A stretch of 64,000 nt of DNA from Mnemiopsis leidyi (lineage: Eukaryota): NCBI GenBank assembly GCA_048537945.1, contig CM108484.1, positions 19,073,034-19,137,033 of the forward strand, in the 5' to 3' direction. Under the pieces are notes generated by a model, which searched no databases, was not told the origin of the DNA, and saw only the letters and a list, made by a program, of their open reading frames with translations. This document shows, in pieces, positions 540 through 35,904 of the stretch. Both the position numbers and the translations under genes were made by a program. The first letter of the stretch is position 1. Each line of letters starts with the position of its first letter.

Positions 540-2300
540 CATCAAATTAACACGTGATTTTGTTACTTCAACGTTGGAGAAAGAATCACGTGGCGCGCCG
601 CACGTGGTAGCCCCTCGACCAATAATGAATCGCGGCACTTTTGTGCCGTAAAACAATCGTATTTCGCCCGACTCTCGTTCAGCTTTAGCTGCGTGAGTCG
701 GGTATCACCGCGACAATCGGAAAGAAACGCGAACGTAAAAAGATCTGCGTGGCGCCCGGCAGCGCCCGGTAGCTTTTGCCTCGCGCCCGTCCGTCCTAAT
801 TTCAAGCTAAACTCACAGGGATGTACGTATTTAGCTGAAATATAAATTATAATATCTTCATGCGTTGTCGAGGTGTTACCCAACTCGCGCGCATTTCGCA
901 GCTTGCTGCCTCCCTGGCGTTATGCGTTAGATTGTAGGTTGATAACCTACTGTCGCGGCCATCACGCGCTGTCACGCATTTCTGGCCTGGCGACTTTCGA
1001 AGAAATTCTAGACGCGCATCGCCCGTTGAGCGTTAGACGGAGATCATTTCATCAATTCCAAGCGTCACTCTTTTGATTGCAAAAGGTTCATCTTCAGTTG
1101 ACGAGATTATATGCGTCTAACGTTCTAACGAAAGCTTTAGCTGCGTGAGTCGTTGTCTCACGTTGTGACCCTTTTCAAAAAAATTTTTCAAAAATTTTTA
1201 AAAATTTGAAAATTTTTTTGAAAATAGGGTCTCAGGAATTACATTAGAAATAAGAAAATAACAGCGCCGCGCGCGCCAAAAGACCTGAATATGGAGGGGT
1301 ACGCTAGCATACCCCTCCAAAACGGCGGGAAATCCGTATTTCCTATAGCCCCCTCCGGGGGGGGGGGGGGGCGTGGCCGCGCGCTTCGCGCGCGCCGGAG
1401 GGCTACCGCTTCGCGGCAGCAGGGCTATGCAACGTGTAGCAAGTGAGTCGGGTGACAAACCTTCAGTATACTTGTACAGCAGCGCGCTCCCTCCCGTCAT
1501 TTTATTCTCCTCTATTCGCTAGTTCGAATGAGGGTCGGACAAAGTCAGACAATCAGTATACATTCACTTAACCATGTGCTTGCACACGCTACGCGCGTGG
1601 CTGCTACAGACAACCTTATAACGCATTTGCGGCACTGCGGCACTTGCGGCACTCCAATGCGGCACTTGCGGCACTCACATGCGGCACTTGCGGCACTGCT
1701 TAAATGAGAAATGCGGCACTTGCGGCACTCTCGAATAAAAAATGCGGCACTTGCGGCACTTTTAGATTGCAAATGCACGTATTAAACGTTGCCTAGCCCT
1801 GCGAAGCGGTAGCCAGGCCACGACCGGCGGCGTAAACGCATGTGATCAATGTAGTATTTAAATTTAACATTGTACAGCTCGCTCACTCCAAACACATTTT
1901 ACGCCGCGGCGTTGCTCTAACCATTAAATGCGCGTAATACTTTAAATATTATATTAGGTGAGACGAGTGACATCCGTTTATTGATTTTGTAATTAACTTT
2001 AAAAAGCTGGTAGTTGCTTGTCGAGGGTTTTATTTGACTCTTGCGCGGCTCGTAGCTTTGCTGCTCTCTCGTTTCGTTAAAACGGTAAACGGATATTATC
2101 CCGTTAAGTAGCTGCTTGTCTGGGGACCTCGGTCTAATTGTTGGAGGGATCGGAAACGTAGAGAGAGCCGCGCATTGCCTTGTAAAGTAGCTGCGCGTTG
2201 GTCAGACCCCTGGTTCATAGCATTGTCACCACGCAAGGTCAACAAGCGCGCCGCGCATTATCAAGTATGCAATCAAATTTGAATCAAGCACTCAGACGGC
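540..2300. repeat. Composite repeat cluster 1: modules of a nonautonomous foldback-like family (GTCGCGGTGATACCCGACTCACGCAG palindromic module, GTTAGACGGATATCATCTCGTCAAG terminal module, TTGTAGGTTGATAACCTACTGTCGCGG module, G-run/GGCTATGCAACGTGTAGCAA module, tandem AATGCGGCACTTGCGGCACTC x~7 at 1600-1780)
   Basis: The same modules recur at 14.9-16.6 kb, 32.04-32.13 kb, 37.4-37.7 kb and 39.6-40.9 kb in both orientations. ORF-track ORFs here (563-883, 1198-1500, 1545-1778) lie entirely in repeats. Confidence 0.55.
1465..1550. mobile_element. ~85-bp mini-element (TTGTACAGCAGCGCGC...GGACAAAGTCAGACAA) flanked by CAGTATAC / TCAGTATAC direct duplication
   Basis: The same element appears at 16568-16634, 39605-39690 (reverse complement), 40425-40500 and 40850-40930. 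The 1465 and 16568 copies show clean target-site duplications. Confidence 0.5.
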
Positions 2301-2580
2301 AAAACTATGCTTCTTGAATGCCGGAGCTCTATAATGTCCTATAATGATAAATCCTTATCTGCACTTCAATAAGTGATTAATTGATAATGGATAATTATGC
2401 CAGCATCATCTTGACGAGATTATATTGTCAAACGTTGCCTGACCTGCTGCCGCGCTTGAAAATGGGCCGCAACGCAAGGCAAAGATCAAATATCCGTTAA
2501 GGAAAAGGCAATTTTAGGAAAAGACAATTTTATTATGTTAAAAAACATTAACTCTCTATGGAATATTTCCCCACTGTGTA

Positions 2581-3723
2581 ATGGACAACGATGATTGGCC
2601 TTGTGCACAGTGTGGAAAAAACCTCAGATCAGAAGCAGAGGCTATTGGCTGTGACTCAAGAAGCTGTAATCGTTGGTTCCATCCATCCTGTCTTACTGGG
2701 CTAACTCAATTTGATGTTGATAGCAACAAGTGGTTCTGTCATCTTTGTTCTGGTAACAAAAACAAGGATCAACCCACACCTGAAAATTGTGATATCCTTA
2801 AGAACGTCAAATGGGGAGCCATCAAAGGCAAAGAGCTCCTTGATACTATCACCAGAGCATATGATGAGATTGTGACTTGGCGCCAAAATGTCTTCAAACT
2901 ACCGACTGGGAAGGCTGGAAAGACATTTCTCAAGGAATTAACCACTCTGTTCAGTCTCTTCAATAATGACACCCCATCTAAACCGATATCATTGACTCTA
3001 ATAATGATATTTTGTCCATTAATGCTTCAAAAACCATCCAAGAACTCTAAATCTAAGGACCATGCCAAGTGTCTAGAATATCGGCTGAAGCTTTGGGAAG
3101 CAGGAGATCTAGCTGGACTGCTTAGAGACGGTAGAGCTATTCAGGCACGTCTTCTGAAAGGAAAGAGGAGGCACACAGATGACCACGAAAAAAGATTCTG
3201 CAAACTTATGCTGGAAGGAAAGGTGTCAGCTGCCCTTAAATGGGTCACAGAAAGAAGATCAGGACTTCTGGAGACAAATCAAAAAGTTGTTGATGAGCTG
3301 CTAATGAAACACCCAAAAGCAGAACCTATGCACAACGATGTAGCTCTGGAGGGTCCACATTTCCTTCCACCAAAAGTAACATATCATCCAATCGATGCCC
3401 AAGCCATTTACTTAGCAGCTAAGAACACAAATGGAGCAGCTGGTCCCTCTGGAATTGATGCAGAAGGCTGGAAAAGATTCCTCTGCTCAAGATCCTTTGG
3501 AAAAGAAACCAGTAATCTATGTTTCGCCATCTCAGAATTCACTAGGAAAGTAGCATCTGAAAATCAGGACCCTGATCATCTTTCCCCATTCACAGCTGCT
3601 AGATTGATACCTCTGGACAAGGGTGATGGTAATCATGGAGTTCGTCCCATTGGGATTGGGGAAGTGCTTCGGCGCATTGTAGGAAAAGCTATCATAAAAC
3701 TGTACGACCTTATCAGATCGTAA
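2581..3723 (+). CDS. TE ORF fragment: PHD zinc finger plus N-terminal part of reverse transcriptase
   Basis: CAQCGK..C..C..WFHPSCL...WFCHLC matches a PHD finger. PLDKGDG-HGVRPIGIGEVLRRIVGKA matches RT domains 1-2. Confidence 0.55.
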   Translation: MDNDDWPCAQCGKNLRSEAEAIGCDSRSCNRWFHPSCLTGLTQFDVDSNKWFCHLCSGNKNKDQPTPENCDILKNVKWGAIKGKELLDTITRAYDEIVTWRQNVFKLPTGKAGKTFLKELTTLFSLFNNDTPSKPISLTLIMIFCPLMLQKPSKNSKSKDHAKCLEYRLKLWEAGDLAGLLRDGRAIQARLLKGKRRHTDDHEKRFCKLMLEGKVSAALKWVTERRSGLLETNQKVVDELLMKHPKAEPMHNDVALEGPHFLPPKVTYHPIDAQAIYLAAKNTNGAAGPSGIDAEGWKRFLCSRSFGKETSNLCFAISEFTRKVASENQDPDHLSPFTAARLIPLDKGDGNHGVRPIGIGEVLRRIVGKAIIKLYDLIRS

Positions 3724-4799
3724 TGTAATTGTAAAGTGATAAGTTGATATCTGAGTTAAGATGAATAATGATTGTATATTGTGTATTAACCTTGATATCA
3801 CTACAACTAAATTATAGTTTCTATTTACCTTGTAGCAATGACATGGAGAACTGACTGCGCTAGGAGATCGGAGAAGAAGAATGAAGTACTGCAGAAGATA
3901 GAGCCTAGTCCAGTGTAAGACCGATGGCAGAATCTAGCAGAAGATAAGTAAAGCAGAAGGCAGAGTCTAGCCCAGAAGGAGGCAGAAGGCAGAGCCTAGC
4001 TGAGAAGAACCACAGGGGATAGCAAAGGCAGGTCCTAGTGGTAAGTAATTTAGGTGAAATTTATTATTTGATGACTTTGGTAATTTAGGAATCCGATCGA
4101 TGTGTTTGAGAGTTTTAGTTAGTTAGGAAGTTTATGTATTTAGTTAGGAGTAGTCTTTCTTTCTTAGATTTGTTTACTTGTGTTTACTGTTACTGTAGTT
4201 GTTGTGTGTTCAGGTTCTGTTGGAGTTTTCTGTTTGGAAGTTTGGGTTTTTGGGAGAAAGTAAAAGTGTACGGGACAAGGGAAAAGTTTGTGTTAAAGGA
4301 AAGTTGGACAGTGGTCAGAGCAGGAGTTACAAGTACGGGTTACCAGCAGAAGTTGATTTTTAGAGTGAGTTACATTTACACCAAAGATGTCAAAGATTCA
4401 CCAATTTAATGTTCAAGTTTGAAGTCACGAATGACGAAGTTTTTATTTATTGTAAATTATAATTGAGAGACAATTTAGTATTACCAATTTATGTCATGTA
4501 TTATATTTTGTACAGTTAGTATTTATTTATAATTGAATCACACACACATTCACATTGAGTTTAGAGTCAGAGTAGAGTTTCACCCTGTTAGTTCGTGTTT
4601 ACTTTAGTTCAGTAGTAGTAGTCCTTGGATTAGTTAGTAGTCTCTAGTGTAGTAGTGTGTTATTCTTTTACGTGAGTTTGTATTTTGTATTTTCTTATTT
4701 ACTGTATTATGATTTTCTGATTACAGTTTATGTCTCAAGATCAAAGTGTATTATTTCTGACCACCACTCAAGTTTTAATATAACAAAAACTGCTGAAAT

Positions 4800-5319
4800 A
4801 CGATGTTGCTCAATGTACAGCTCCCATGCAACTATGTGGAGGGGTTAAGGGTGGTGTTGAAGCACTGAAGCAGCAGTCCATGGTCTCAGAGCTGTATGGG
4901 AAGACAATGAAACTGAGGCGGTGCTTCTTGTTGATGCAAGGAATGCCTTTAATTGTATGAATAGAAAAACAGGACTGCAGAATACTGGCATCATCTGCCC
5001 AGAACTGTTTACCTACCTGAACAATACATATCAGAAACCATCAGACCTATTTGTAGCTGGTTCAGAAGGGCTCAAAATCAAAAGCCAAGAGGGAACTACA
5101 CAGGGTGATACAACTGCTATGGCATTTTATGCACTGAGCCTTATGAAACTAATCAAAGATGCAAAGACCAAAGCTCCAGATGCCAAAGAAGTGTTCTATG
5201 CTGATGATGGAGCAGCAGGTGGCAAGTTAGGTCCACTTAGCCAGTTTTGGAAATACCTTCAAGAGGACGGCCCTAAATATGGATATTTTGTGAATCCCTC
5301 AAAGTCCTATCTCATCGTG
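4800..5319 (+). pseudogene. TE RT core (motifs A-E), frameshifted at its start
   Basis: AVLLVDARNAFN (motif A), FYADDGAAGG (motif C), FVNPSKSYLIVFG (motif D/E). Confidence 0.5.
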
Positions 5320-6725
5320 TTTGGAAACTATGGACTGTGTTATGGACCTGTGTTATGGACCTCTTAGAACAGGGTATTCCAGTTGATATACTATTTTTTG
5401 ACTTTAAAAAAGCCTTTGATAGAGTTCCACATAAAAGATTATTGTTGAAGCTTGAATGCTTAGGAATTAAGGGCAAAGTTTTAGATGTTATTAAAGATTT
5501 CTTGATTGGTAGAACTTTCAGGGTTTCATTGCAGGGTGAATTTTCTTCTATTAAAGATATTCTATCGGGAATACCACAGGGTTCAGTCTTGGGACCCTTG
5601 CTATTTATCTTATTCATAAATGATCTACCGGATTGTTTGAAAAGTACTGTAAAGATATTTGCAGATGACTTAAAGCTTATTGCTGATTTGTCTGATAAGA
5701 GTGTGGTTCATAGTGATTTAGTGCTATTGGAAGATTGGGAGAAAAAGTGGCTGTTGGAATTTAATACTGATAAATGTAAAGTTCTCCATATAGAACACAA
5801 TAATAATGAACATTTAGATTATGTGCTTAATGGTAGTAAATTGAAAGAAACTGATCAGGAAAAAGATCTTACCTCTGGCAACTTGCTTTGGAATGATCAG
5901 ATTGAATCATGTATTAGTAAAGCTAACCAAATGTTATGTTGGATTTCTAGAAACCTCATAAGTAGAGAGAAGTTGTTAATGCTTAGGGTGTACAAGACCT
6001 TAATCAGGCCACATCTCGAATATTGTGTTCAGCTTTGGAATCCTGCAGCAGAGCATGGAAATTGGTCTTTGATAATGAGGATTGAGAGCGTCCAGAGACG
6101 CTTTACTCGGATGATTGAAGGGGTAGGCCTTCTTCCTTACTCTGAGCGACTGCAGATTCTACAGCTGACTACCCTCGCTGAGAGACGTTCGAGAGGAGAC
6201 CTGATTGAGGTTTATAAAGCCAGCCAGGGTTTATCCCATTTATCTGGGGTCTTAAATTTTAGTAGATCAGGAGTTAATTTGGTATGTAAACCAGGGAAAA
6301 GTAAAGTTTCCAAAATTAATCGTATTCGTAGAAATTTTTTAAATGATAGGGTTATGTCATTTTGGAATAAGCTACCCATAGAGGTGAAGACTGCATTAAA
6401 TTTAAATGTTTTTAAATCTCATCTTGAGATTTTTAAGGGCAGAACTAAAGCTTTAGGAATTTGTGGTAGTGGGAACTTCTGGGATATTTCTGATGAGATC
6501 TTAAATCGTATTGAAAGTGGAAGTTATTTAGAGAATAAGATAAGACATAATACCTTTCTCAAAGATAATCCTTTTGTAGCTAGAAAAAGGTTTATCAACA
6601 TAAATTAGGATTTTGAATTTCTGTATTTTAGCTTTTAATTGAATTTTAGATTTTTTAAAGATACTTTTGGAGATTAGTTGTGATGATGCTGGCATCATTA
6701 TTTGTTATTTATTTTTTATTTATTT
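5320..6725 (+). mobile_element. CR1/L2-like LINE, 5'-truncated 3' fragment (RT C-terminal half plus 3'UTR), nested insertion with 6-bp TSD ATCGTG (5314-5319 and 6726-6731)
   Basis: ORF 5337-6608 carries FFDFKKAFDRVPH, GIPQGSVLGPLLF, IFADDLKL and the CR1-type C-terminal signature LEYCVQLWNP...ERRSRGDLIEVYK. It is about 90% identical in protein to the copy at 16640-18379. The host-element frame KSYLIV|KPGVRK is restored across the insertion. Confidence 0.7.
5337..6608 (+). CDS. LINE ORF2 fragment (reverse transcriptase, fingers-palm-thumb and C-terminal CR1 tail)
   Basis: The RT motifs and CR1 C-terminal signature listed for the parent feature. Confidence 0.7.
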   Translation: MLWTCVMDLLEQGIPVDILFFDFKKAFDRVPHKRLLLKLECLGIKGKVLDVIKDFLIGRTFRVSLQGEFSSIKDILSGIPQGSVLGPLLFILFINDLPDCLKSTVKIFADDLKLIADLSDKSVVHSDLVLLEDWEKKWLLEFNTDKCKVLHIEHNNNEHLDYVLNGSKLKETDQEKDLTSGNLLWNDQIESCISKANQMLCWISRNLISREKLLMLRVYKTLIRPHLEYCVQLWNPAAEHGNWSLIMRIESVQRRFTRMIEGVGLLPYSERLQILQLTTLAERRSRGDLIEVYKASQGLSHLSGVLNFSRSGVNLVCKPGKSKVSKINRIRRNFLNDRVMSFWNKLPIEVKTALNLNVFKSHLEIFKGRTKALGICGSGNFWDISDEILNRIESGSYLENKIRHNTFLKDNPFVARKRFININ

Positions 6726-6729
6726 ATCG

Positions 6730-7922
6730 TGAAACCAGGTGTAAGAAAAGAAGCAGAAGAACTGTTCCCAAATGTCAACATCACCACAGAAGGTAGTCGA
6801 TACCTTGGCTCCTTTATTGGTACAGAAGAAGGTACAAAAAAGTTTGTCCAAGACCAAGTCAAACTCTGGTTGAGGGATCTTGAGGGCCTATCTAACATCG
6901 CTCAACATGAACCTCACCTATCATACTGCGCCTACATTTACGGGACAAGTAAAAGATGGAATTATCTCATGAGAACTACACCTCAAATATCAGAACATCT
7001 TGAAGATATAGAATGTTACATCATCAAAAGATTGATTCCATCTTTCACAGGTCATAAAGTGGGCATTGACCATCGAGCCATATTCACCCTACCTGTTAGA
7101 CATGGTGGTTTGGCTATAGAAAATCCTGTGGAAATTGCGGATCGAGAATACCAAAACTCATTGAGAATGACAGAAGTGCTTTGGAAAGCAATTTTCAACC
7201 AAGAGCAGAGCATCAGGATAGCAGATACAGAAGACCAAAAGCTTATTGATGACATAAAGAAACAAAAAGAGGAAACATTTATTCAAGTCAAGTTTGAAGC
7301 TATAAGTCATCTGTCCCCAAAAGATGCAAGATTTGTCGCACTGGCATGTGAGAAAGGTGCATCATCATGGCTGTCAACTCTGCCACTGGAGGAATATGGC
7401 TTCTCATTGAATAAACAGGAATTCAAAGATGCTGTTGCCATGAGATACAACTTCCCAATTGAAGGTAGATCAAAAACATGCATATGTGGTGAAGAGAACA
7501 CACAAGACCATTCACTGATTTGTAAACGAGGAGGTTTCACATCAATCCGACATAACACCATTAGAGACACTACAGCAAATCTCCTGGAAAAGATATGCTA
7601 TGGAGTTGAGATTGAGCCTGCTCTCCTTCCTGTAGGAAACCGCAAGCTACCACCTGGCTCAAATGTAAAAGATGGTGCTCGATCAGACATAGTTGCTCGA
7701 GGATTCTGGACACCTTTAGATAAGGCCTATTTTGATATAAGGGTTCTTCACCCAGGGGCTAAATCTAATGAGAACAAATCCTTCGACAAGATGTACAATC
7801 AGCACGAGGAGGAGAAGAAGAGGCAGTACAACAGCCGAATCCAAGACATAGAACATGGAACCTTCACTCCGCTTGTTTTCTCGACCTCAGGAGGAATGTC
7901 CATGAAGGAGGAATGTCCATGA
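6730..7922 (+). CDS. TE ORF fragment: RT thumb plus CCHC / REL-endonuclease-like C-terminus of the RLE-type element
   Basis: CICGEENTQDHSLICKRGG (C..C...H....C) followed by RSDIVARGFW ... YFDIRVLHP. Confidence 0.45.
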
Positions 7923-8482
7923 AGAAACTTAGTGAGGGACTGAGCTTCAGGACCCAACAAGCTTACCCAGACACTATCAATTATGTAAGGAGAAGGCTAA
8001 GGTTTGAACTTCTGAAGACCACCCTTATCTCCATCAGAGGACACCGAGGAAGGTTCTTCCAGAGACCAATCGACCTAGAAGAGATTGATCTTAACTTAAT
8101 AGCAGACTATAGAGTCAAAGACTAAAGAGTTAATCATTCTGAAGAGAGAAGAAAGAAGAAAATAAGATTTTAAATTATTTTAGGTAGATTTATTCAAATT
8201 GGGTTTTAAAGGGTAATTTATTATTTTTAATTGATACTGTATTTTAGGAGGAAGCTCCGGTCAATGATGAAGCAAGACTCCTTGAGTGTGAGGCCGTGAG
8301 CTCCCTCCCCCTTTTTTTAAAAAAAAAAAAAAAAAAAAATTTATTTCATTTTTACGTCTGATAATAGTACATTCAATTAAAATATATTTAGTTTATTCCT
8401 CCAGTTATTTAAAAATCCGCTTTCCGTCACTCACATTTGTGAGCATACAAACTTTGGCTTAACATCTTAAAATTTCCGATTT

Positions 8483-10700
8483 ATGCCAGAGAGCAGCAAA
8501 GCTTTCTCCAAACTTCCTGAAGTAGGAAAAGTCACTCCAGTGCATAAAAAGGGGATCTACAATTATTTGATAACCATAGACCTATATCTATATTACCAAT
8601 ATCTGGTGGGATATATTCTAGACTCTGCAGCTTCTTTGCATCTCAAATGGTGGTTCATGACAAATAATTTGGATTTAGAGCCAACCACTCAACAGCTTAT
8701 CACTCATGCTGTTAATTACTCTTTCAACCATATTCTTGATAACCTGGAGAAGAAGAACTATGTTATAGGAACTTTCATTGATCTTAGTAAAGCTCTTGAC
8801 ACTATTTTGACCATGAAAAATTCCTTGTAAGATTAGAACGCTATGGCATCAGGGGTGCTTGTCTTGAACCTATAAGAAGCTATCTATGTGGCCGACAGCA
8901 ATATACTAACTTCTAGAATACACATTATGAAAACTGTAAGATTAACTATAGTGTCCCTTAGGGAGTTGCCTTTGGGGCTTGGTCCTCTTCTGTTCCTACT
9001 GTATATCAATGACATTACAAATGCCAGTAACCTTGGACATTTTATATTATTTGCAATCAAACAAGAAAATTTCAATCAAACAGGAAAATTTTTTTCACAA
9101 CAATTACAGGATGTATACGATTAAGATTAAAACTCCTTTAAACTTAATTTTTATTCAGTTATTTGTCGAGTTACAGATTTCCTAGATTGATTTTAATCGT
9201 TCAGCCGGACAATTTTAATTGACGAGTAATTTACACCACTTGTACTAACACAACATAGTAGGAATTAAGGTTGCACATACAATAGGTCAATATGACAATG
9301 GCGACGCCAAGCAGACTCGAGATTATTAAAATGAACAACGAAATGAACAGGCGATTGTGTTCAAACTTTGCGCGTGCAGTGCGGAGTTTTTAAAATGCGG
9401 AGTTTTTTAAATCATGCATCGAACGGCTGCATTACTTCGCGCGTCTGTATTAACAAGTGCAGAAAAATTAAATTGACCGAAATTACTGGTTTTTGGTTTG
9501 AGAAATGCGAGTTGCCTGATGCATATTTTGATTCCTCATTCGGCGAATTGTAATAAAAATAAGGGACGTCGCGATACCGGAAATTAAGCGGTTGCCTGAC
9601 ACAAATCTTGTTTTATTTTATAATTCAAATCTTAGCTCATGACATGATTTTGGAAATGTGGCATCATGTTTCATGGTTCAGCCCGACCTTATAAAATTAA
9701 AAACCGTTCACGATGCCACCACGACACGACACCTAACCGCTCAATACTCATGTGAAAAATTTATGAGTATGTCCAATTGCTACTAAAGGCTGGGTGGAAA
9801 TATAACACCCGCCTGTCGGGAATAACAGGCCTAATTCTTGTTTTATTGGTACCATTAATACATAAAAATCGCTGATATAACAATTGAAAAGAAAATTACA
9901 CGAAGAAGTTAGCGTTATCAGTTTTACAAGACAGATGATACCAACATATTTGCGGATGATACTTACATATTTGTAACTGGTAAAAGTGAAGTAGAGGTTC
10001 ATTTTCATGCTAATCAGGTTCTTAGAGCAATTAATGACTACATGGCATCCAACAACATTGGTCATGCATCGCATGAAATATATCGAGTCACTGGCCATAG
10101 GTGGTCTTCATCTTTACATATGATATTTGTAATTTAATAAACCAAAATTTAATTGTTCTAAATGTTCTTTTCTCATATAAATATCAGTAAATCAGTTTAC
10201 ATGCTTTTTCCAACTTAATAGAAACTCCTACTGTGCTTGTGCACGTGAATATAATGGTCATCAACCCCTAAAACTGTCGGATATTGAATTAACTCATAAA
10301 GAAGGGGTCACATTTTTAGGTGTTATAATTGATTCTGGGCTTCATGGGAACCCATGTTGAAAAACTTCAAGCTAAACTTGCATTCAGTGTAAATGCTGTA
10401 ATTAAGGGTATCATGAAGTTTATTTTACACCAGAGTTATTGTATAAGTTGTTGGGGTGGAGTCACAACTTATAGGTTATCCAAGCTGTTCACACTTAAGA
10501 AACGATGTGTCTGCCTCCTCTTTGGAACTAAACCTACTTTTGACAATACTGTATTCTATGAAACTTGTGTTAGAGCCAAAAGAATCTCTGGCCACATGGC
10601 CAAGAAAAATTACTTGCTCGAAAAATCCTTTCCTATCTTTAACAAGGAGAAGATCTTGTCAGATACATAATTACAGTCATCCCCCGATTTACCGGGCCTT
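8483..10700 (+). mobile_element. Degenerate LINE RT remnant (same family as the full-length LINE at 53-58 kb), frameshifted and interrupted
   Basis: LSKALDTI and LPLGLGPLLFLLYINDI (8483-9000); FADDTYIFVTGKSEVE at about 9930-10100; C-terminal region 10329-10670 similar to ORF 53273-54706. Confidence 0.45.
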
Positions 10701-10982
10701 ATTCCTTTCCCCCGAAATTTATTTTATTTCCAAGGCAACTGTTAAATTTTGTTGTCAAAACTATGTAATACAGTCAGACTAACAATTTTTACTTGTTTAA
10801 CATTGTTCCAATGACAAAAAGACGGTATATAGACACATAAGACGGTATATAGACCAATAAGAGACAATTTAGTCCCAATTACGGCCACAAATGGCACTCC
10901 CCCGATTTACCGGGTCCCCCGATTTACCGTGCATTTTTGCTTTCCCCCGAAAAGCCCGATAAATTGGGGGATGACTGTAGTA
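10673..10982. mobile_element. MITE-like element with ~25-bp TIR (TACAGTCATCCCCCGATTTACCGGG ... CCCGATAAATTGGGGGATGACTGTAG) and internal CCCCCGATTTACCG repeats
   Basis: Terminal inverted repeats read directly from the sequence. Confidence 0.45.
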
Positions 10983-11127
10983 TGTGCAATGAACTGTTCA
11001 AAGTCGTTAAAAATCGCCAACCAATATCCCTAGCTAACTTGTTTTAATTAAGTTTGAGGTCTACCCGTTTTCTTATATAAATACCACAATGTAAACTCGA
11101 TTTGTCTATGCATAACTTTGTTTATAT

Positions 11128-11170
11128 CACCAGTCCCTCTCCCTCTCCCTCTCCCTCTCCCTCTCCCTCT
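11128..11170. repeat. (CCCTCT)n microsatellite
   Basis: Seven or more perfect hexamer units. Confidence 0.9.
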
Positions 11171-11339
11171 CACATCTCTTAAATCGAGTTCATTTGATTC
11201 TTGAATCCTAGAAGCTAAGATCTGAAGCAGTTAAGAGACTAATTTAAGATTATTGATTATGTTATTTACTTGTCCATTAACAGTCGATTACTCGATTAAT
11301 TATACTAATGGCATCAAAGATTTCACTGCAACGCTACCG

Positions 11340-11950
11340 CTAAAAAATTCTGATATAGGATCAGCACCAACTTCTTGATGGTTAATCAGGTACATATTTT
11401 GACCGTTAGTTGACTTGATTCTTATCTTAGATCTAGAACCAAATATCCAACTCTTGCAGCTGTTTTATTGGTCTCCTAACTTAACACATAAGCCACACGG
11501 CCATACATTGTAGTAGATAAGTAGATATAGAGTATGGTATTTTGAGGAAGGGTCTCGAATTTCAACCAATCAGAAGCGAGAAAGCAGTGTTTTCTCTCTT
11601 CTAATTGGTTAAAATTTGAGACCCTTCCCGAAAATACCGTACTTTATTGCGTTGACATACAAAATTTTGTTCTTTTATTGCCTACTATTTCAGCTCGATA
11701 AAACATTAGCCGAGTAACAGAACGCAAATTCTCCTCAATCTGCAGCTGAATGATGAATCAACTGTCCGCTTTGTTAGTTTAAGAGAAGAAAGGATCAGTA
11801 CTTCTTGATGGTTAATCAGGTACACATTTTGACCGTAATTGGTTGACTTGATTCTTATCTTTATAAATCTGTAGGTTTAGACCTAGAACCAAATATCCAG
11901 CCCATGCAACTGTTTTATTGGTCACCTGGCTTATCACCATGGTAACAGCA
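11340..11950. repeat. ~140-bp direct repeat pair (11345-11480 and 11800-11940) flanking a ~110-bp hairpin (11523-11637)
   Basis: CTTCTTGATGGTTAATCAGGTACA...TTTTATTGGTC occurs twice. GTATTTTGAGGAAGGGTCTCGAATTTCAACCAAT and its reverse complement form the hairpin. Confidence 0.5.
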
Positions 11951-14889
11951 ACCAGACAATTATCACTTTTTATCATTATACGAAAGTAGAATAGGTAGTC
12001 AGGGGAATTGTTAAAGATCACACCATCACGAGTGTACACAAATTACATTACTCGACAGGTGAACACTTGACACGCGCATTACAATGATGATGGTTAATTT
12101 AGCGGGATATGCCGATACTATAAATAGCATGGCAAGTGTAATCTTGGGAATCGGGCAAGGAATAATGTAATATAGGATTGGTCATTTTGTAAATAAGCTT
12201 GAAAATTTCTGTCTACTAAACGAAATAAAAACATGAGGAAATGATTGTGATTTCTGGGCTTCTATGCGTTAGATAACCTACTTTTGATTACTTGATATTG
12301 ACTAACAAGGCCTAATAATGACAGGAAGATAGTACTGGTCGCTATTTCAGCTTGATGATAGCGAATTATTTGCGCTAATTTAGCAGCGTAAAATGCGATT
12401 ACAAAAGTTATTGCACGAGGCAAGGCCGAGTTGTATAAATACAATTATCGCTCGAAGCGAGACCCAATGTGATCATTTACAGTACCTGACTAACTATGCA
12501 AGGCAAAGCCGAGTGCAAAAACTTTTGTAATCGCTTAGTATGTTGTTGAATTACTGTATTATGCCACGTATCCCCCATGCAGTATCATAAGCTAACATAA
12601 CATCTTATCGTGAGCTTACAAACATTACTGTTCGAGGCGAGGGCTAAATGCAATAATCGCTCGAAGCGAAAAATGCCAACAAAAAAAAGAGCTCGAAGTG
12701 GCATGATAATTTTTCCCAGATTCGAACATCGGCTCAGAGATGGAATACACCATTGTTCAACTTGTAGCTAAAGAGATCACTACTGCTGCCATGTTTTTTA
12801 GAAAGAAACGAAAGCGACAGTTACCGGCAATGAACAAGGTACAAACAGCTGTTGTGTAGAAACTTACAGACAAATATATCAGATTTAAGTTACAAATTAA
12901 TAAACTAAAAACTTACTTAAATGGGTCACGTGACCAACCTACTTGCATTATAACTTGGTAGTAACCGGACAGTAGTAAATAACTAAAGTCTCGTCCCATT
13001 TCTATTGATAATATTAATACAAGTGTACATTTTTACATCTCAATTACATAACACGTACGCTGAACAGACGCAGCATATAACTCATGATCTTGCTTCTCAG
13101 TCGAATAGGCTATAAACTTGAGGAATATTGGTCAAGATCCATGTTTTTTGGTTTCTGCAATATAATTTTTTGGCTTCCTCGAAAAATGTACGATATCAGC
13201 GTCTCCTCGTCTTTTCCGTTGAAATTTGGAAAACTGACTCATCAGACCAAATCTTCAAAGCGGCCCTGAAAAGGATGACTGCAGCCCTTCGGCTTGAACT
13301 AAAATATGTAACTTGTGTGGGTCATGGTCCCTTTGATAATACGCCTCGCAGTTATAGTTATGATCTGGACCGGCCCAGAACCAGCAAAAACTTTCATTTT
13401 GATGTAAGAATTTTGGTGCCTGACTCACGTCACTTGCAAAAATTATTTTGATCAACAAAACCATGATTTCGCTTTTTAGAAAGGTTGTTCCCTAGCCAAA
13501 ATCGACCGTACTTTCATGTGGTACTGTCGAAATTGGCATATCATCAACCACAAAAAGATAAAAGGCAAATGTCATTGTTTTATGGGACATACTTTATGGG
13601 ACATACTTTATGGGACAAACTTATATCAAGCTGCAAATATTTGACAGATTTGATTGTAAGTGAAGATCAGTTTCTAGCTCAAAATCGACAAAAAATAGCG
13701 TGCTAGCCTTGGTTTTTTCAATTAAATTATTACTGTTTATTAGGAAGCAGATAAAAATCTTTTTGAGGCGCACCGAGTTGTAATTATTGACAACTCTTTA
13801 AGCTGGATATACTCGTTCATGTTCATGTTAAATCCCGGAAGGTTTTAACCCCTAACCGGGTCCCTCGTAGAGTTAGCACGTGACAGCATCACGTGTGGGC
13901 TCCTATATCATTTTAAGAGACCCGCCCATTAGCTCCCTCCTTAGGGGTGCCGCCAAGGATATACATGACTGGTCTTTTTAAGTGTCGGGCCGCCTGAGCT
14001 GGCTATGCCTATGAGCACTCCACAGCGACCACGGGTCTGCCATCGTAATCAGTGCTAAGATTGCAACTGAAATTAAGACATTATCGACCCGAGAACAATG
14101 GTCAGACAGTGCAATTAGCCAACTGACCATTCTCCTGAGAATCCTTCGATGCTGGTAGCTGAGATGTCGAAGGACTCTCAAAAGCCCATCTCAGCCGTGC
14201 TATTGTAGGAGGGAGTCTCGCATGTGGTGTTTAACTATAATATTCATTGTCTTATGTTTTGACATCAGTTTAAGAATATTGGAGGCACTAGGGGTATTCT
14301 GAATGTTGTCTAGGCATTAGTTAGTACTGAATTTTCAGACAGGGCTACGGATATACTCTAGAGTGTGGTTTTCAAAACTTATCTGTCTTTTTCGGTGCCT
14401 CATTGAAAGATTCTTTTTTGGCGCCAATTTTCACTAAGTTCAATAAGTTTTGATAATTCTCCTCTCGACTTAAGAAACAGGCATGGAATTAACCGAATTT
14501 TATCGATACATTTCTGCTTTAAGTATAATAGTTGTGTTTAATGGTGCCCAATCATTCAATTTAGGTTTAACATTTTCAGGACCCAAGACCCAGATGTTGA
14601 TCCAGTGATGTAGCGAATAACGTTTAACGACACGAATTACAATCCCGACGTGATGATGGATCAAACCACGCTGATTGTACGACACGCGCTGCAGACTAAT
14701 ACAATCTTTATGTGATAACGACTTCATCGTTGATGTTTCGTATTGTACTGCGCGCGCATGAATCAGTTAAATAATTATGGCGCTACGTTTATTAATCTAG
14801 CTTAGATCTTCTGTACATCATAGTAAGTTAACGGTCTTATTTTGTACAATAAATTAATTTTGTAATCTTCATGGCTTCGTTGAATCTCT

Positions 14890-16445
14890 CATGCCCTTCG
14901 AGGAATTCAATTAGCAAATCAGCTACTTGACTCAGATTCGAACTTGGAACCTACAGCACACGAAACCGGTGCCGTAACCCCTCAACTAAAATAGTGCCGC
15001 ATTTTTCGGAGTGCCGCATTTTTTTACGGCACTCCAGAAAAACGCGGCACTCTGGCTTACAGTGCCGCATGGCATTTCTACGGCATATGACGCTTAGCTT
15101 AGGGGTTAGTCAGTGTTATGGTGCAACCTGTGTGCTTAGCACATATGACTGATGACGTTAGAGGCAATTCAACCTAAAAAACATAAATTTTACCGTAAAA
15201 TTAAAATCGATCTCAATCATGACACTTGAGCTGAATCGATCGCCTATAATTTTTCAAAATCTTTAGACAAAGTCTAAATTTTTTATAGGTAGGTATAAAT
15301 ATTTAATCGGATTGACGTATTTTTCGTACTGATTCCTGATCGCCCCAGCCTAACGTCGCGGCCCGTTTTCAAGTCGAATAAAGTTCTTATGAAAATAGGT
15401 CGGCAGGGCTTCCGCTACGCGGCAGCAGGCCTGGCCTGACAACGTCAGGCAAAATAGTATTAGTCCCATATGACAGAGGGTAAAAAGGCTTTCTGCCAAA
15501 CCCAATGCACAATGGGTCACGTGACCAACCTTGACGAGATGATACCGTTCTGCGTGAGTCGGGTATCTGTTGTCGCGGTGATACCCGACTCACGCAGCTA
15601 AAGCTGAACGTTTCGCTAGAACGTTAGACGGATATCATCTCGTCAAGGTATCTGCGTGAGTCGGGTATCACCGCGACAAGACCAACCTTTCATGATCATC
15701 TTACCAATTCTATATCAAATATCGTTTTTAAATTTACTATTTTATCTCTATGCTTTAATTCAACAATTATTCGAATTTTATTTCTTCGGTTACAAAATAA
15801 TGTCCGTAGTAATAGTATTAGTTGACGGGATGATAGCCGTCTAACTCTAACGTTCTGACTAAATTAAACCAGAACACAGAAACGTCAGAGAGTAGCAAAG
15901 CTACGAGTCGGGTAACACCTCAACAAAGCTAAAGTTTTGGTAATGCATTATGATATAATATAATGCAATTGCCACCCGAGAGTAAGATGGAGAGACTAGT
16001 CGGAGAGTGTCACGTTTTGGTGCCGTTGTAGGTTGATAACCTACTGTCGGGGCGCGGCCATCACGCGCTCCCACGCCTGGTGACAGAAAATGAAATTTTA
16101 GTCGCGCATCCAGCATCGCCCGTTAAAATTATGACTTAATGGTGCCGCAATTTTCATCTTACTAGAGCTAGAGTGCCGCGACTGTGACATGTGAGTGCCG
16201 CATGTGAGTGCCGCAAGTGCCGTAGTGCCGTAATTTTTATTTTAGAGTGCCGCATGTGAGTGCCGCAAGTGCCGCATGATAGTGCCGCAAGTGCCGCATT
16301 ATAGTGCCGCAAGTGCCGCAGTGCCGTAATAACGTAATAAGGTGGGCTCGGCTGCTACCTCTAGTGGCGCGCGCGACGCGCACAAAAGGGCCCTGGTTAG
16401 AGCAAAGTATACAAAATTCAAATACTATATTATTAATGCTTATTA
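14890..16445. repeat. Composite repeat cluster 2: tRNA-like fragment (14890-14990), AGTGCCGCA tandem blocks (14990-15060, 16180-16330), a 120-bp palindromic mini-foldback (15535-15650) flanked by 8-bp GACCAACC duplications, and a TTGTAGGTTGATAACC module (16025-16080)
   Basis: The modules are shared with cluster 1. CTTGACGAGATGATA...TATCATCTCGTCAAG termini enclose the CTGCGTGAGTCGGGTATC palindrome. GACCAACC is found at 15527-15534 and 15683-15690. Confidence 0.5.
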
Positions 16446-16567
16446 ATAAATAAAAAATAAATAACAAATAATGATGCCAGCATCATCACACCTTATCTCT
16501 CAAACTATCTTAAAAGCTTTAAAATTCAAAATAAAAATCTCAAATACCAAAAGTTTAATCCTAATTT

Positions 16568-16634
16568 GTACAGCAGCGCGCACCCTCCCGTCATTTTATT
16601 CTCCGGGACAAAGTCAGACCGGACAAAGTCAGAC
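16568..16634. mobile_element. 67-bp mini-element (TGTACAGCAGCGCGCACCCTCCCGTCATTTTATTCTCC...GGACAAAGTCAGACA) with 10-bp TSD AATCCTAATT (16558-16567 and 16635-16644)
   Basis: The LINE copy at 6609-6700 has the uninterrupted 3'UTR, so the empty site is visible (TTAGGATTT|TGAATTT). A perfect 10-bp duplication flanks the insert. Confidence 0.6.
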
Positions 16635-16639
16635 AAATC

Positions 16640-18379
16640 CTAATTAATGTTAATAAACTTTTTTCTAGCTACAAAAGGGTTCTCCCTGAGAAATTCATTA
16701 TGTCTCATTTTATTCTCAAAATAACTCCCACTTTCAATACGATTCAAGACCTCATCAGAAATATCCCAAAAGTTCCCACTACTGTAGAGTCCTAAGGATT
16801 TAGTTTTGCTCTTAAAAATTTCCAGATTAGATTTAAAAATATTTAGATTTAATGCAGTCTTCACCTCTATGGGTAGCTTATTCCAAAACAACATTACCCT
16901 ATCATTTAAGAATTTTCTTCGAAAACGATTAATCTTGGAAGCTTTACTCTTCCCTGGCTTACATATCAAATTTACTCCAGACCTACTAAAATTAAAGACT
17001 CCAGCTAACTGGGATAAGCCCTGGCTAGCTTTATAAACTTCAATCAGGTCACCTCTCGAACGTCTCTCAGCGAGAGTAGTCAGCTCTAGTATCTGCAGTC
17101 GCTCAGAGTAAGGAAGAAGGCCTACCCCTTCAATCATCCGCGTAAAGCGTCTCTGGACGCTCTCAATCCTCATTATTAAAGACCAATTTCCATGCTCTGC
17201 TGCAGGATTCCAAAGCTGAACACAATATTCGAGATGTGGCCTGATCAAGGTCTTGTACACCCTAAGCATTATCGATTTCTCTCTACTTATAAGGTTTCTA
17301 GATATCCAGCACAACATTTGATTGGCTTTACTAATACACGATTCAATCTGATCATTCCAAAGCAAGGTGCCAGAGGTAAGGACACCCAGATCTTTTTCTT
17401 GAACAGTTTCTTTTAATTTATTACCATGGAGCACATAATCAAAGTGTTTATTATCATTATGTTCTATATGAAGTACTTTACATTTATTAGTATTAAATTC
17501 AAGTAGCCACTTTCTCTCCCAATCTTCCAAAAGTTTTAAGTCATTGTCAACCACTGTTTTATCTGACAGATTTGCTATCAGTTTTAGGTCGTCAGCAAAA
17601 ATCTTTACAACACTCTTTAAACAATCTGGTAGATCATTTATAAATAAAATAAATAGTAAAGGTCCCAAAACTGAACCCTGTGGTATTCCTGATAAAATAT
17701 CTTTAAATGAAGAAAATTTACCCTGCAAAGAAACCCTAAAAGTTCTACCAATTAAGAAATCTTTGATAACATCTGTAGCTTTCCCATTAATTCCTAAGCA
17801 TTCAAGCTTTAACAACAATCTTCTATGTGGCACTCTATCAAAGGCTTTCTTAAAATCAAAAAATAGTATGTCAACTGGAATGCCCTGCTCTAAGAGGTCC
17901 ATTACACAGTCCATAGTTTCTAACAGATTGCTTAGACAAGACTTGCCTTTAACAAACCCATGTTGATGAGGGTTGATCTTGTCCTCAACAAATACCAGAA
18001 TTTCATCTCTAAGAATCTTTTCATAAACTTTACACAGAATACAAGTTAATGACACAGGTCTATAATTTAAAGGGTCAGTTTTAGACCCACTCTTAAATAG
18101 TGCAGTGAGATTAGCAGATTTCCATATTTTAGGTAATTCACCACTATCTGTGCATTTTCTAAATAATTTAACAACAGCTTCAACAAATGAAGAATCGTCA
18201 GCTAATGACTTTAAAAGTTTAGGGTGAATACCATCAGGACCAAAGCTTTTAAAACAATTTAAGCTCTCTAGTTGATGTTTTACTATGTCGAAAGTAATAT
18301 TTATGTCAGACAAAATATCAGGTTCAATGTCAGGTCTCTCAACACTTGGTAGGTTTTCTAAGCATATAAGCATATACAA
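16640..18379 (-). CDS. LINE ORF2 fragment (reverse transcriptase)
   Basis: NYRPVSL, FFDFKKAFDRVPH, GIPQGSVLGPLLF, FADD and the CR1 C-terminal tail. Confidence 0.7.
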   Translation of the reverse strand: MYMLICLENLPSVERPDIEPDILSDINITFDIVKHQLESLNCFKSFGPDGIHPKLLKSLADDSSFVEAVVKLFRKCTDSGELPKIWKSANLTALFKSGSKTDPLNYRPVSLTCILCKVYEKILRDEILVFVEDKINPHQHGFVKGKSCLSNLLETMDCVMDLLEQGIPVDILFFDFKKAFDRVPHRRLLLKLECLGINGKATDVIKDFLIGRTFRVSLQGKFSSFKDILSGIPQGSVLGPLLFILFINDLPDCLKSVVKIFADDLKLIANLSDKTVVDNDLKLLEDWERKWLLEFNTNKCKVLHIEHNDNKHFDYVLHGNKLKETVQEKDLGVLTSGTLLWNDQIESCISKANQMLCWISRNLISREKSIMLRVYKTLIRPHLEYCVQLWNPAAEHGNWSLIMRIESVQRRFTRMIEGVGLLPYSERLQILELTTLAERRSRGDLIEVYKASQGLSQLAGVFNFSRSGVNLICKPGKSKASKINRFRRKFLNDRVMLFWNKLPIEVKTALNLNIFKSNLEIFKSKTKSLGLYSSGNFWDISDEVLNRIESGSYFENKMRHNEFLRENPFVARKKFININ

Positions 18380-27075: not shown

Positions 27076-27408
27076 GTACAAGCACAAGGTATAGGCGGCC
27101 TGACACGCAGCTTTAAAGCGATAGACATGGAGGAAGGGAAGGAGGTTGTGTGGAACGAGATTGAGATAAGTCAGGAGATGCACTCTCTGATAAGACGAGA
27201 CTCTAGCAAGGAGGCCATGGAGGCTATCTTGAAGATATTCAAGAGGATAGAACATGTGAACTTGATCAAGTACAGCGGATACTGGATACATGACTCAGCG
27301 GAGGACGGGATGTTCAAGATTGTCTACATTACTGAGTACACCATGGCGGGAACCCTGCGCAGCTTTCTCAGGAGGAGCAAGTTCAATAAGAAAAAAATTG
27401 GAGCTAAG
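27076..27408 (+). CDS. NRBP: NRBP-like exon 2 (VQAQGIGGLTRSFKAIDMEEGKEVVWNEIE...ITEYTMAGTLRSFLRRSKFNKKKIGAK)
   Basis: Co-linear with NRBP1 GIDSAYLAMDTEEGVEVVWNEV...ITEYMSSGSLKQFLKKTKKN. AG acceptor at 27074-75, GT donor at 27409. Confidence 0.75.
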
Positions 27409-27479: not shown

Positions 27480-28460
27480 ATTCAAACTAATTGTGCTTTG
27501 GTTTTCCTCTAGAAACTTACTGTTAACTTCCTCTCAACTTACTGTAAACTTCCTTTAAACTTACTGTTAACTTCCTCTAAACTTACTGTTAACTTCCTCT
27601 AAACTTACTGTTAACTTCTTCTAAACTTACTGTTAACTTCCTCTAAACTAACTGTTAACTTCCTCTAAACTTACTGTTAACTTCCTCTAAACTTACTGTT
27701 AACTTCCTCTAAACTTACTGTCAACTTCCTCTAAACTAACTGTTAACTTCCTCTAAACTTACTGTTAACTTCCTCTAAACTTACTGTTAACTTCCTCTAA
27801 ACTTACTGTTAACTTCCTCTAAACTTACTGTTAACTTCCTCTACACTTACTTTTAACTTCCTCTAAACTTACTGTTAACTTCCTCTAAACTTACTGTTAA
27901 CTTCCTCTACACTTACTGTTAACTTCCTCTAAACTTGCTGTTAACTTCCTCTAAATTTTTTATTAAATTCCTCTAAACTTACTGTCAACTTCCTTTAAAC
28001 TTACTTTTAACTTCCTCTACACTTACTGTTAACTTCCTCTAAACTTACTGTTAACTTCCTCTACACTTACTGTTAACTTCCTCTAAACTTGCTGTTAACC
28101 TCCTCTAAAACTTTTGTTAACTTCCTCTGAACTTACTGTTAACTTTCTAAAAACTTACTGTTAACTTCCTCCAAACTAACTGTTAACTTCCTCCAAACTT
28201 ACTGTTAACTTCCTCTAATCTTACTGTAAACTTCCTCTAAACTTACTGTAAACTTCCAGTAAAATTACTGTTAACTTCCTCCAAACTTTCTGTTAACTTC
28301 CTCTAAGCTTATAGTTAACTTCCTTTAAACTTACCGTTAACTTCCTCTAAACTTACTGTAAACTTCCTCTAAACTTACTGTAAGCTTCCTCTAAACGTAC
28401 TGTTGACTTCCTCTAAACTTACTGTGAACTTCCTCTAAACTTACTGTTAACTTTCTGATT
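27480..28460. repeat. 22-bp minisatellite (CTTACTGTTAACTTCCTCTAAA)n, about 44 units, filling almost all of NRBP intron 2
   Basis: Units are contiguous, with point variants such as GCTG, CACTT and TTTT. Confidence 0.9.
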
Positions 28461-31375: not shown

Positions 31376-32040
31376 TTGTTGTTACTGATTACATGTTCGT
31401 TTCGGCACGTGGGTATAAATCATGGAACAGCTAAGCGAGGTCTGAGCTGAGTCTGTAAGAAACAAGAGAGTTTGATAAGAGTACCGGAAATAAGAACGTT
31501 CTCTTAAGCCAGCTAATTTAGCAAAAATGCAGCTGTCGTTGTTAGCCACGCCTTGTTTATCAGTAGCCTAATGCATTGATACCTGCCACTGCAAGTGTGT
31601 ACAGTTGTTAACTTTTAAGGGTATCAAAACTAAGATGAGTGGCAGTGAGACCGCCAACGAGTAGTTTTTATTTTTAAGAATAAGGATGGAGCCAATAGAA
31701 GAAAATTGCACCATGCCAGTTTATAGTTGCCACCTGCCCTCCCTCGTATAGGGACCCATAAGAATTCTAATTAAAATTATACTCACGTGCCGCAACTTTA
31801 GTGTTTAAGTTTGACATAGACTTAGTCAGAAATCAGGTGTCCGCAAAAAGATAATTTTTGGGCAAGGAATGCACTGGGAAGATTTATTTTAGGACCGATA
31901 ACAGCGATTGACCTGTCAGCGTAGGTAAAAATATACAATTTTATATGACAGGTAAGTAGAAATGCTGTAACTGTAAGTTCTGGGTCTGGTAAATGTTTGA
32001 TGCAGTTTGAACATTAAAGTTACCTCCCCCTTAGTTATTT

Positions 32041-32130
32041 GTCTCACGTTGTGACCCCCCTCCGAAGGGAGGGGGGAGGGGGCGTGGCCGCGCTGCGCGC
32101 GGCAGCGGGGCTATGCAACGTGTAGCAATC
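32041..32130. repeat. Fragment of the composite repeat family (GTCACGTTGTGACCCCCCTCC...GGCTATGCAACGTGTAGCAA module)
   Basis: Near-identical to 1150-1460. Confidence 0.6.
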
Positions 32131-32262
32131 AGTTATCACGTTACCTTCAGTTATCACGTTACCTTCAGTTATCACGTTACCTTCAGTTATCACGTTACCT
32201 TCAGTTATCACGTTACCTTCAGTTATCACGTTACCTTCAGTTATCACGTTACCTCCCCCCTC
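32130..32262. repeat. 18-bp tandem repeat (CAGTTATCACGTTACCTT) x7, abutting the exon-4 acceptor
   Basis: The last unit degenerates into CCCCCCTCAG|TTATCTACATTCC, which is the exon-4 start. Confidence 0.85.
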
Positions 32263-32824: not shown

Positions 32825-32965
32825 AAAAACCGACGAGATCTCACTGAAGAAGAACGAAGACTAGTGTTAGAAACGTGCGGGGAAAGCAAGAGAAACTTTC
32901 TGAAGGAATGTTTCAGCAACAGTGCCCCTGTGGGTCAGCTCATCAACCATACTATCTTCATTGAG
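32825..32965 (+). CDS. NRBP: NRBP-like exon 6 (KKKKNRRDLTEEERRLVLETCGESKRNFLKECFSNSAPVGQLINHTIFIE)
   Basis: Aligns with NRBP1 REFIQKCLQSEPARRPTARELLFHPALFE. The donor GAG|GTAACA is the first unit of the 41-bp tandem array. Confidence 0.65.
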
Positions 32966-35830: not shown

Positions 35831-35904
35831 TTTAAAGCAAACTTAATTTCTGTACCATTTCCTTAATTTGGCGATGTTTGTATTTAATTTCTCAATCCAT
35901 CCAG

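Follow-up and report, generated by a model that had tools for sequence, protein, structure and literature searches.

Nested miniature inverted-repeat transposons and a foldback-like element in a 64-kb stretch of the Mnemiopsis leidyi genome

Organization of the locus

The 64,000-nucleotide stretch of Mnemiopsis leidyi DNA analyzed here (contig CM108484.1, positions 19,073,034 to 19,137,033; hereafter the window) is about 37% G+C and carries long interspersed nuclear element (LINE) reverse transcriptases, satellites, an orphan open reading frame (ORF), and four clusters of short repeats at 0.5-2.3, 14.9-16.6, 37.4-37.7, and 39.6-40.9 kb, with a related fragment at 32.04-32.13 kb. As described in an initial annotation made from the sequence, the clusters and the fragment share modules in both orientations (repeat finder, self-BLAST). 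The annotation's single modular family with shuffled modules does not hold, however: at least nine separate short families, designated F1, F2, D, E, H, J, K, L, and M, are inserted into or beside each other. The clusters are very probably transposon nests of short, non-coding inverted-repeat elements (MITEs, or miniature inverted-repeat transposable elements), together with the ends of one long element, J-long.

Besides the 64-kb window, the sample takes in a single further M. leidyi contig and ~115 kb from a different species. Locus L001 is a JGI marine metagenome contig, and loci L003 and L008-L011 (ENA ERZ25070731, ERZ25071805) belong to a second, related ctenophore.

Evidence for insertion

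The window contains two copies of a CR1/jockey-like LINE. Copy 1 (5337-6727) interrupts a PHD-finger and reverse-transcriptase LINE that ends in poly(A) (2581-8340), and copy 2 (16442-18379), in reverse orientation, adjoins J-long on its right. The reverse transcriptase of copy 2 (16640-18379, minus strand) shares 82-89% identity with ctenophore proteins from M. leidyi and from ENA. A D MITE (16566-16636, plus strand) is positioned directly after the stop codon of copy 2, bounded by a perfect 8-bp target-site duplication (TSD), ATCCTAAT. Copy 1 aligns on both sides of this element (16442-16567 with 6727-6602 and 16635-17380 with 6613-5868), revealing an empty site at about 6602-6613, where a 12-nt overlap stands opposite the 71-bp element plus the second ATCCTAAT of copy 2. 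The D element is likewise absent from four CR1 copies of the second ctenophore. Together, the TSDs and this paralogous empty site prove the insertion of mobile elements, in agreement with the transposition proposed initially, and the elements are non-autonomous inverted-repeat elements of the MITE type.

The family units span 54-361 bp and are non-coding, with no ORF or Pfam content found. Nearly all copies terminate in 5'-TTG...CAA-3'. Within a size range of 40-400 bp, the window has seven such units flanked by exact 8-bp repeats, against 0.17 expected, and TTG/CAA tops all 64 terminal trinucleotide classes in the 8-bp-flank scan with tandem repeats masked; the five hits of the runner-up class all derive from one 367-bp direct repeat. 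Two H copies (932-1029 and 16026-16139) were missed by the TTG...CAA scan solely through their mutated 3' ends. A TTG...CAA stretch at 27320-27380 with a one-mismatch flank lies in coding-like sequence and was judged a chance match. Across the window and the sampled loci, exact TSDs comprise 16 of 8 bp and five of 9 bp, and both lengths occur inside single families, the 9-bp form being found in D, F2, H, and K. The initial annotation had named a lack of consistent termini and TSDs among copies as the mark of a rearranged satellite; instead, both are consistent in the window, the metagenome contig, and the second ctenophore.

A locally rearranged satellite or segmental duplication formed without transposition, or a set of tRNA-derived short interspersed nuclear elements (SINEs), is thus extremely improbable: tandem arrays are present, and the 9-mer GTTCGAATC occurs at 14935 on the minus strand, but the unit-specific TSDs and the paralogous empty site contradict such an origin, as do the inverted ends, the lack of poly(A) tails, and the lack of any tRNA by ARAGORN or Rfam. 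The tRNA-like fragment with a box B previously proposed at 14890-14990 was not recovered. ARAGORN reports no tRNA anywhere in the window, Rfam finds none at gathering score in the window and none at E<=10 in 14800-15150, and the quoted decamer GGTTCGAATC is absent, the 9-mer being present only at 14935 and 12719, both on the minus strand. Two stretches, 12690-12770 and 14900-14990, each carry the tRNA T-arm-like GTTCGAATCTG on the minus strand and match no tRNA or SINE model; they may be decayed pieces of tRNA-derived SINEs.

Architecture of J-long

The first two clusters are the two ends of one foldback-like element, J-long, which spans 14,843 bp (1563-16405, minus strand) with tips TTCACTTAACCATGTG... 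and ...CCCTGGTTAGAGCAA. The motif GCGGCACT occurs 26 times in the window against 0.36 expected, corroborating the tandem arrays noted in the initial annotation, and is confined to 0.6-1.8 and 15.0-16.3 kb. It forms tandem units of 22/31 bp at 1623-1760 and 16188-16326, and the two arrays are inverted and 14.5 kb apart. Alignment of 1545-1790 with the reverse complement of 16150-16438 reveals inverted ends of ~230-260 bp that run from tips TTCACTTAACCATG... and TTGCTCTAACCAGG... through the arrays. The left long inverted end (1563-1790, plus strand) includes the (ATGCGGCACTTGCGGCACTnnn)n array, and the right (16150-16405, minus strand) includes its counterpart; the ends are 76% identical overall, with nearly identical arrays. 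A perfect 8-bp direct repeat, AGTATACA, lies immediately outside both tips at 1555-1562 and 16406-16413 and is absent from the remainder of the window on both strands. Because AGTATACA is found solely at the outer boundaries of inverted, array-bearing ends, 1563-16405 constitutes one insertion unit with foldback-like architecture. The Foldback label of the initial annotation therefore fits J-long, which that annotation had missed, and not the 540-bp unit to which it was applied.

The interior of J-long holds the PHD-finger and reverse-transcriptase LINE with the CR1 copy inside it, degenerate reverse-transcriptase fragments, and further MITEs. A profile of the spurious ORFs running through the arrays, compared with 5.8 billion proteins, returned no match. 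No transposase domain was found in the ORFs at 3.5-13.4 kb or in six frames of 10650-14900. On this evidence, J-long is non-autonomous; either subsequent insertions enlarged it, or it travelled as a composite unit. A 78-bp J MITE (40702-40779) aligns to the two joined tips of J-long with about 85% identity, identifying it as an internal-deletion derivative. A pair of array-bearing ends can thus bound a unit of nearly 15 kb with other transposons inside.

Composition of the nests

In the first cluster, an F1-like MITE (865-1055, plus strand; ends TTGTCGAGG...TTTCATCAA) has flanks TTCATGCG/TTCCAAGC that agree at 5/8 positions, a decayed TSD, and hosts in its A end an H MITE (932-1029, plus strand; start TTGTAGGTTGATAACCTAC) with the perfect 8-bp TSD GCGTTAGA. 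It is followed by an F2 MITE (1098-1458, minus strand; ends TTGACGAGAT...GGGTGACAA; TSD ATCTTCAG/ACCTTCAG, 7/8), whose B end carries a long E element (1153-1442, plus strand; ends TTGTCTCACG...GTGTAGCAA; perfect 8-bp TSD GTGAGTCG). A D MITE (1472-1552, plus strand; ends TTGTACAGC...GTCAGACAA; perfect 9-bp TSD TCAGTATAC) is situated 10 bp outside the left tip of J-long.

The second cluster contains what had been described as a 120-bp minimal version of the family at 15535-15650. Its GACCAACC duplication is genuine, but the real span is 15531-15679 (149 bp) and comprises two nested elements: an outer F2 MITE on the minus strand with GACCAACC as its perfect 8-bp TSD and an inner F2 MITE (15570-15646, plus strand) with the perfect 8-bp TSD GGTATCTG. 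The 21-bp string AATGGGTCACGTGACCAACCT occurs twice, uninterrupted at 12921-12940 and carrying the nested F2 pair at 15513-15532; this string may be the end of a further repeat family, or else the uninterrupted copy may be a paralogous empty site. A diverged F1 copy (15822-15932, minus strand) and an H MITE (16026-16139, plus strand; perfect 8-bp TSD TGGTGCCG; 3' end ...TTAA) follow, the latter within the subterminal array region of J-long.

The isolated fragment is a short E MITE (32039-32128, plus strand) in an 18-bp satellite, with TSD TTAGTTAT/TCAGTTAT (7/8) and a strong hairpin fold (z = -5.0). In the third cluster, a short F2 MITE (37456-37509, plus strand; perfect 9-bp TSD TGTTTGTCG) is inserted into the first 6 nt of another F2 MITE (37513-37579, plus strand), striking its 5' tip, and an F1 MITE (37597-37682, plus strand) has the perfect 8-bp TSD GATTAGTG. 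Treating this cluster as one unit with AGTGAAATT flanks was rejected as chance, since that 9-mer occurs five times in the window.

In the fourth cluster, an L-type element (about 39552-39727; ends TTACCGGGCG...CCCCAGGCAA) encloses a D MITE (39599-39682, minus strand). Element M (39839-40222), with inverted ends TTGCTAAGCTAACATAG.../...CTATGTTGGTTTAGCAA, contains in its left end an F1 MITE (39853-39946, minus strand; perfect 8-bp TSD AGCTAACA), and a second F1 MITE lies at 40299-40388 (plus strand; perfect 8-bp TSD GTGAGAAC). Beyond these are a D MITE (40420-40492, plus strand; 9-bp flanks GGGCTATAC/GCGCCATAC, 7/9), the short J MITE (40702-40779, plus strand; flanks CAGATAAA/CAGCTAGA, 6/8), and a D MITE with a damaged 5' tip (40847-40934, plus strand).

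The initial annotation treated 39853-40390 as a 540-bp element, the best-preserved member of one modular Foldback-type or complex MITE family. Its inverted arms are real: 39853-39946 and 40299-40388 are 98-100% complementary in blocks (repeat finder). Its palindromic interior also exists, in that inverted ends are present there, but these belong to the separate element M. The modules do recur in both orientations, and the stretch does fold back through the inverted F1 copies and the M ends. The unit as a whole nevertheless lacks a TSD, being flanked by AGCTAACA on the left and GTGAGAAC on the right, each of which is the perfect duplication of a different arm; the arms are thus two independent F1 insertions. 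Solitary modules with their own TSDs also occur in a LINE 3' untranslated region, a satellite, the metagenome contig, and the other species. Against this evidence, a single modular family is a very improbable description of the clusters.

Copies outside the window

An F1 copy on L001, 94% identical and located just outside a J-like tip, has TSD CATTGTCA. It was the one true copy returned by a single metagenome DNA-pattern scan, alongside one bacterial chance match (L002); two viral-contig scans for further element copies gave no matches, and a scan of bacterial and archaeal genomes gave just chance 20-mer matches (L004-L007).

The second ctenophore carries H, J, K, and F-like copies with 8- or 9-bp TSDs, several of them nested in J, H, or L elements. 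These include a 90-bp J (L009 14545-14634, GGCCATAC), four H copies (L003 13552-13644, ACCAGAGCC; L003 13673-13762, GCGTAGTGT; L008 6947-7047, GTAAGCCT; L008 6858-7059, ACCGCGCA), two K copies (L003 8822-8881, GCCGTTAC; L008 6594-6695, GAGAGGAGC), and an F-like copy (L010 21396-21461, CCAAAACC). Locus L011, which holds the ortholog of the gene at 50.7 kb, has no modules within +/-10 kb and so provides no empty-site information for the fourth cluster.

Nesting and target choice

Of 15 TSD-bounded insertions, at least 8 are located in another element of the group or no more than 15 nt from one. Within the window, the elements at 37456 (into the first 6 nt of F2), 932 (F A end), and 1153 (F2 B end) are inserted into F elements, as is a K-like element at 2425 (F A end), while those at 39853 and 16026 lie in the end of M and the arrays of J-long, respectively. 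In the second ctenophore, L003 13552 entered a J tip and L008 6947 an H tip. F2 1098-1458, D 1472-1552, and J-long represent three independent insertions with overlapping targets within the 14-bp ACCTTCAGTATACA. The stretches concerned are 1459-1562 and 16406-16413. Since the TSDs of further D and J copies end in CTATAC or CCATAC (40420; L009 14537), a weak preference for (C/T)ATAC as target may exist.

G+C content in the clusters is 44-49%, and their CpG observed/expected ratio is 1.3-1.9, against 36% and 0.66 in the rest of the window. This contrast, and the CR1 LINEs in or beside nests in the window (16442 onward), L003, L008, and L009, including one CR1 copy inside a MITE, would also be expected if the nests were tolerated or accessible landing spots for any transposon and not products of mutual end-targeting. 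We regard that explanation as a serious one, with a probability somewhat short of even. It accounts less well for the terminal palindromes being hit themselves (37456, 932, 1153, 39853; L003 13552; L008 6947), for three insertions overlapping within 14 bp, and for just two insertions having fallen in the window's ~19 kb of LINE and satellite sequence. In L003, a full CR1 copy (8946-13135) is contained in a 'P' MITE (8870-13152; tip TTGTTGTCCGCTCG...) with an apparent AAAC duplication, indicating that LINEs also land in nests. Such CpG-rich nests in an AT-rich genome could influence methylation, chromatin, or rearrangement.

Terminal hairpins

Most family ends consist of TT followed by a 7-3-7 palindrome, so that the element tip folds as a small hairpin right after the TT. 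Written as TT, arm, loop, and arm, the tips read TT GTAGGTT GAT AACCTAC in H, TT GCCAGAC GTT GTCTGGC in K, TT GACGGAT GAT ATCCGTC in F-like elements, TT GTCG(C)GGT GAT ACCCGAC at the F B end, and TT GCTCT AACC AGAGC in J. The conserved TTG...CAA thus corresponds to TT together with the base that opens the stem. Among 38 distinct element ends, 37 begin with TT, mostly TTG, and the first 24 nt have a mean DNA folding energy of -2.82 kcal/mol, compared with -1.18 +/- 0.17 for shuffles and -1.18 for a background of 513 TTG 24-mers of similar G+C. The density of sites with TT and a hairpin is 4.9 per kb within the clusters and 0.53 per kb outside them, the 27 observed in the clusters comparing with 1.9 +/- 1.4 in shuffled clusters.

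Comparison of the F A and B ends revealed five differing positions, comprising two compensatory exchanges of a base pair, one from T-A to A-T and one from G-C to A-T, and a bulged base. Among the 13 distinct F ends, pairing holds in 90% of cells; the covariation score of 0.264, compared with 0.122 +/- 0.028 for shuffles, is reached by none of 500 shuffles and is much lower in slid controls.

Shared by families that are otherwise unalignable, and kept up by compensatory changes, the hairpin ends might mark an undescribed ctenophore cut-and-paste lineage, possibly a superfamily, whose transposase would recognize a DNA structure (hairpin or cruciform) instead of a sequence and would favor such palindromes as targets, with tip homing producing the CpG-rich nests; we consider this broader proposal unlikely. 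If the hairpin ends are indeed a recognition feature, they would represent an unusual structure-based recognition for a eukaryotic cut-and-paste transposon. Short hairpins at or near the ends, apparently important for their structure, are likewise present in IS200/IS605 and Helitron elements, a resemblance only, given the 8/9-bp duplications here. These IS200/IS605- and Helitron-type elements use HUH single-strand mechanisms, create no TSD, and insert beside a fixed short motif; HUH hairpin-end elements were therefore rejected as candidates, as variable 8/9-bp duplications flank the copies described here.

Mechanism and classification

Separate insertions with a fixed 8/9-bp staggered duplication would be explained by cut-and-paste transposition, catalyzed by a DDE-type transposase that autonomous elements, presumably residing outside this window, would provide in trans. 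The enzyme may recognize the conserved TT and 7-3-7 palindrome at the tips by structure, and new copies may prefer to land in or beside resident copies, particularly at their tips, building CpG-rich nests. The GCGGCACT arrays may serve as multiple transposase-binding sites, by analogy with Galileo, in which repeats in the long ends have this role (PMC3688188).

Several observations weigh against this interpretation. No transposase was found, leaving the TSDs as the sole guide to enzyme class: Pfam scans covering ORFs of the window and a six-frame translation of 10650-14900 gave LINE domains or nothing, with no transposase domain in the ORFs at 3.5-13.4 kb or in those six frames, and neither the window nor the ~115 kb of loci holds an autonomous element with matching ends. 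In the J-long TSD, the central GTATAC is itself a palindrome, so only the two outer bases distinguish a direct from an inverted repeat. The inverted ends are imperfect, agreeing at 10-13 of 16 positions within a unit, and the copies at 39599, 40847, and 15822, as well as M and L, lack a clean TSD. The F-end covariation is effectively one split between A and B ends and is suggestive, not conclusive. LINEs in or beside the nests could reflect permissive chromatin or weak selection instead of self-targeting, and the sample of one window, one extra contig, and ~115 kb of a second species is small.

TSD length, tallied across copies as the initial annotation had suggested, is 8 or 9 bp, which fits Mutator/Foldback (Phantom-like) elements and Merlin alike. 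hAT elements, which have a strict 8-bp TSD and YARNG ends, were rejected owing to the 9-bp TSDs within D, F2, H, and K and to ends of the form TTGNC or TTGNA.

Membership in the Foldback/Phantom-like branch of the Mutator superfamily is possible, although we would place it below an even chance. The closest anatomical match for J-long is Tm1, a Mutator/Foldback element of the root-knot nematode Meloidogyne with an identified Phantom-like transposase and TSDs of 8-10 bp, mostly 9, without consensus (PMC3169594). Both have composite inverted ends built of tandem sub-repeats, unequal terminal motifs, short MITE-like derivatives, and nested insertions (PMC3169594). The TSDs here fall within the 8-11 bp of Mutator-like elements (MULEs; PMC6446971) and the Tm1 range, but the 8 bp of J-long, which is also the commonest length here, is not the commonest in Tm1, and the Tm1 tips, CGGTTAA and CCTACCC, differ from TT plus hairpin (PMC3169594). 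No MULE or FLYWCH protein was found in the scanned window ORFs or the six-frame scan, and ctenophores are unmentioned in a MULE survey (PMC6446971).

Merlin offers an alternative source for these MITEs, though an improbable one. Its TSDs of 8 or 9 bp are exactly the mix observed here, and Merlin is present in ctenophore genomes: M. leidyi is reported to contain remnants, and two other ctenophores to have intact ORFs (PMC8101967). Its conserved terminal 5'-GG-3' (PMC8101967) is, however, absent from these elements, which start with TTG, TTC, or TTA, and the window yielded no DDE_Tnp_IS1595 domain, nor is any IS1595-type transposase linked to them.

Drosophila Foldback (FB) elements resemble J-long in their long, internally repetitive inverted ends and in large, variable middles able to carry other DNA, and they have 9-bp TSDs. 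Galileo shares this resemblance but has 7-bp TSDs, compared with 8 bp in J-long (PMC3688188, PMC3573991). Both differ in showing no sequence similarity, and the majority of the elements described here, MITEs of 54-110 bp, lack long ends. Nesting of MITEs has a parallel in plants: in 2001, Jiang and Wessler reportedly found that maize and rice MITEs insert preferentially inside other MITEs, forming multimers. Those nested MITEs belong to Tourist and Stowaway and have 2-3-bp TSDs, whereas the TSDs here are 8-9 bp and the terminal palindrome is often hit.

The repeat group is real and mobile and, to our knowledge, undescribed for M. leidyi, our literature searches having found no description of these families. 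It is of an ordinary kind, nested MITEs and a foldback-like non-autonomous element, and any unusual features might be limited to the hairpin-tip signature and the tight self-nesting. Searching for TT-hairpin ends together with an 8/9-bp duplication provides an annotation rule for the large GC-rich repeat fraction of ctenophores, without which nested copies are easily misread as complex satellites or large palindromes.

Other features of the window

The ORF at 50742-52118 is identical (100%) to the M. leidyi hypothetical protein ACHWQZ_G012835 over the alignable 79% of its length, and the closest similarity elsewhere, at 58-59% identity, is to proteins encoded on long ENA contigs of the second ctenophore. 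It is a single-exon, fast-evolving orphan with a weak, below-threshold Dicer-dimer-like Pfam match. A third LINE, with APE and reverse-transcriptase domains, occupies 53273-56554 on the minus strand.

Between the third and fourth clusters, a 678-bp foldback-type element (38823-39500) has 191-bp arms that are 99% complementary, no clear TSD, and ends ATAAATTGACC... unlike the TTG group. A ~5.1-kb element at 58848-63938 has ~370-bp inverted ends starting CATTGCATGAATAAAA and TA flanks on both sides, which make it Tc1/mariner-like by TSD. Its ORF (61900-62853) yields two weak, sub-threshold Pfam matches only, DUF2031 and DUF3972 (E 0.004-0.009), and it contains a 246-bp inverted duplication (61053-61298 and 61570-61815) that is 100% complementary and may either have arisen very recently or be an artefact of assembly.

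Satellites are found at 27504-28453 (22 bp x43), 32938-33330 (41 bp x9.6), 33641-33847 (42 bp x5), and 35039-35831 (56 bp x14), and the satellite targeted by the short E MITE extends over 32129-32254 as seven copies of its 18-bp unit at 100% identity.

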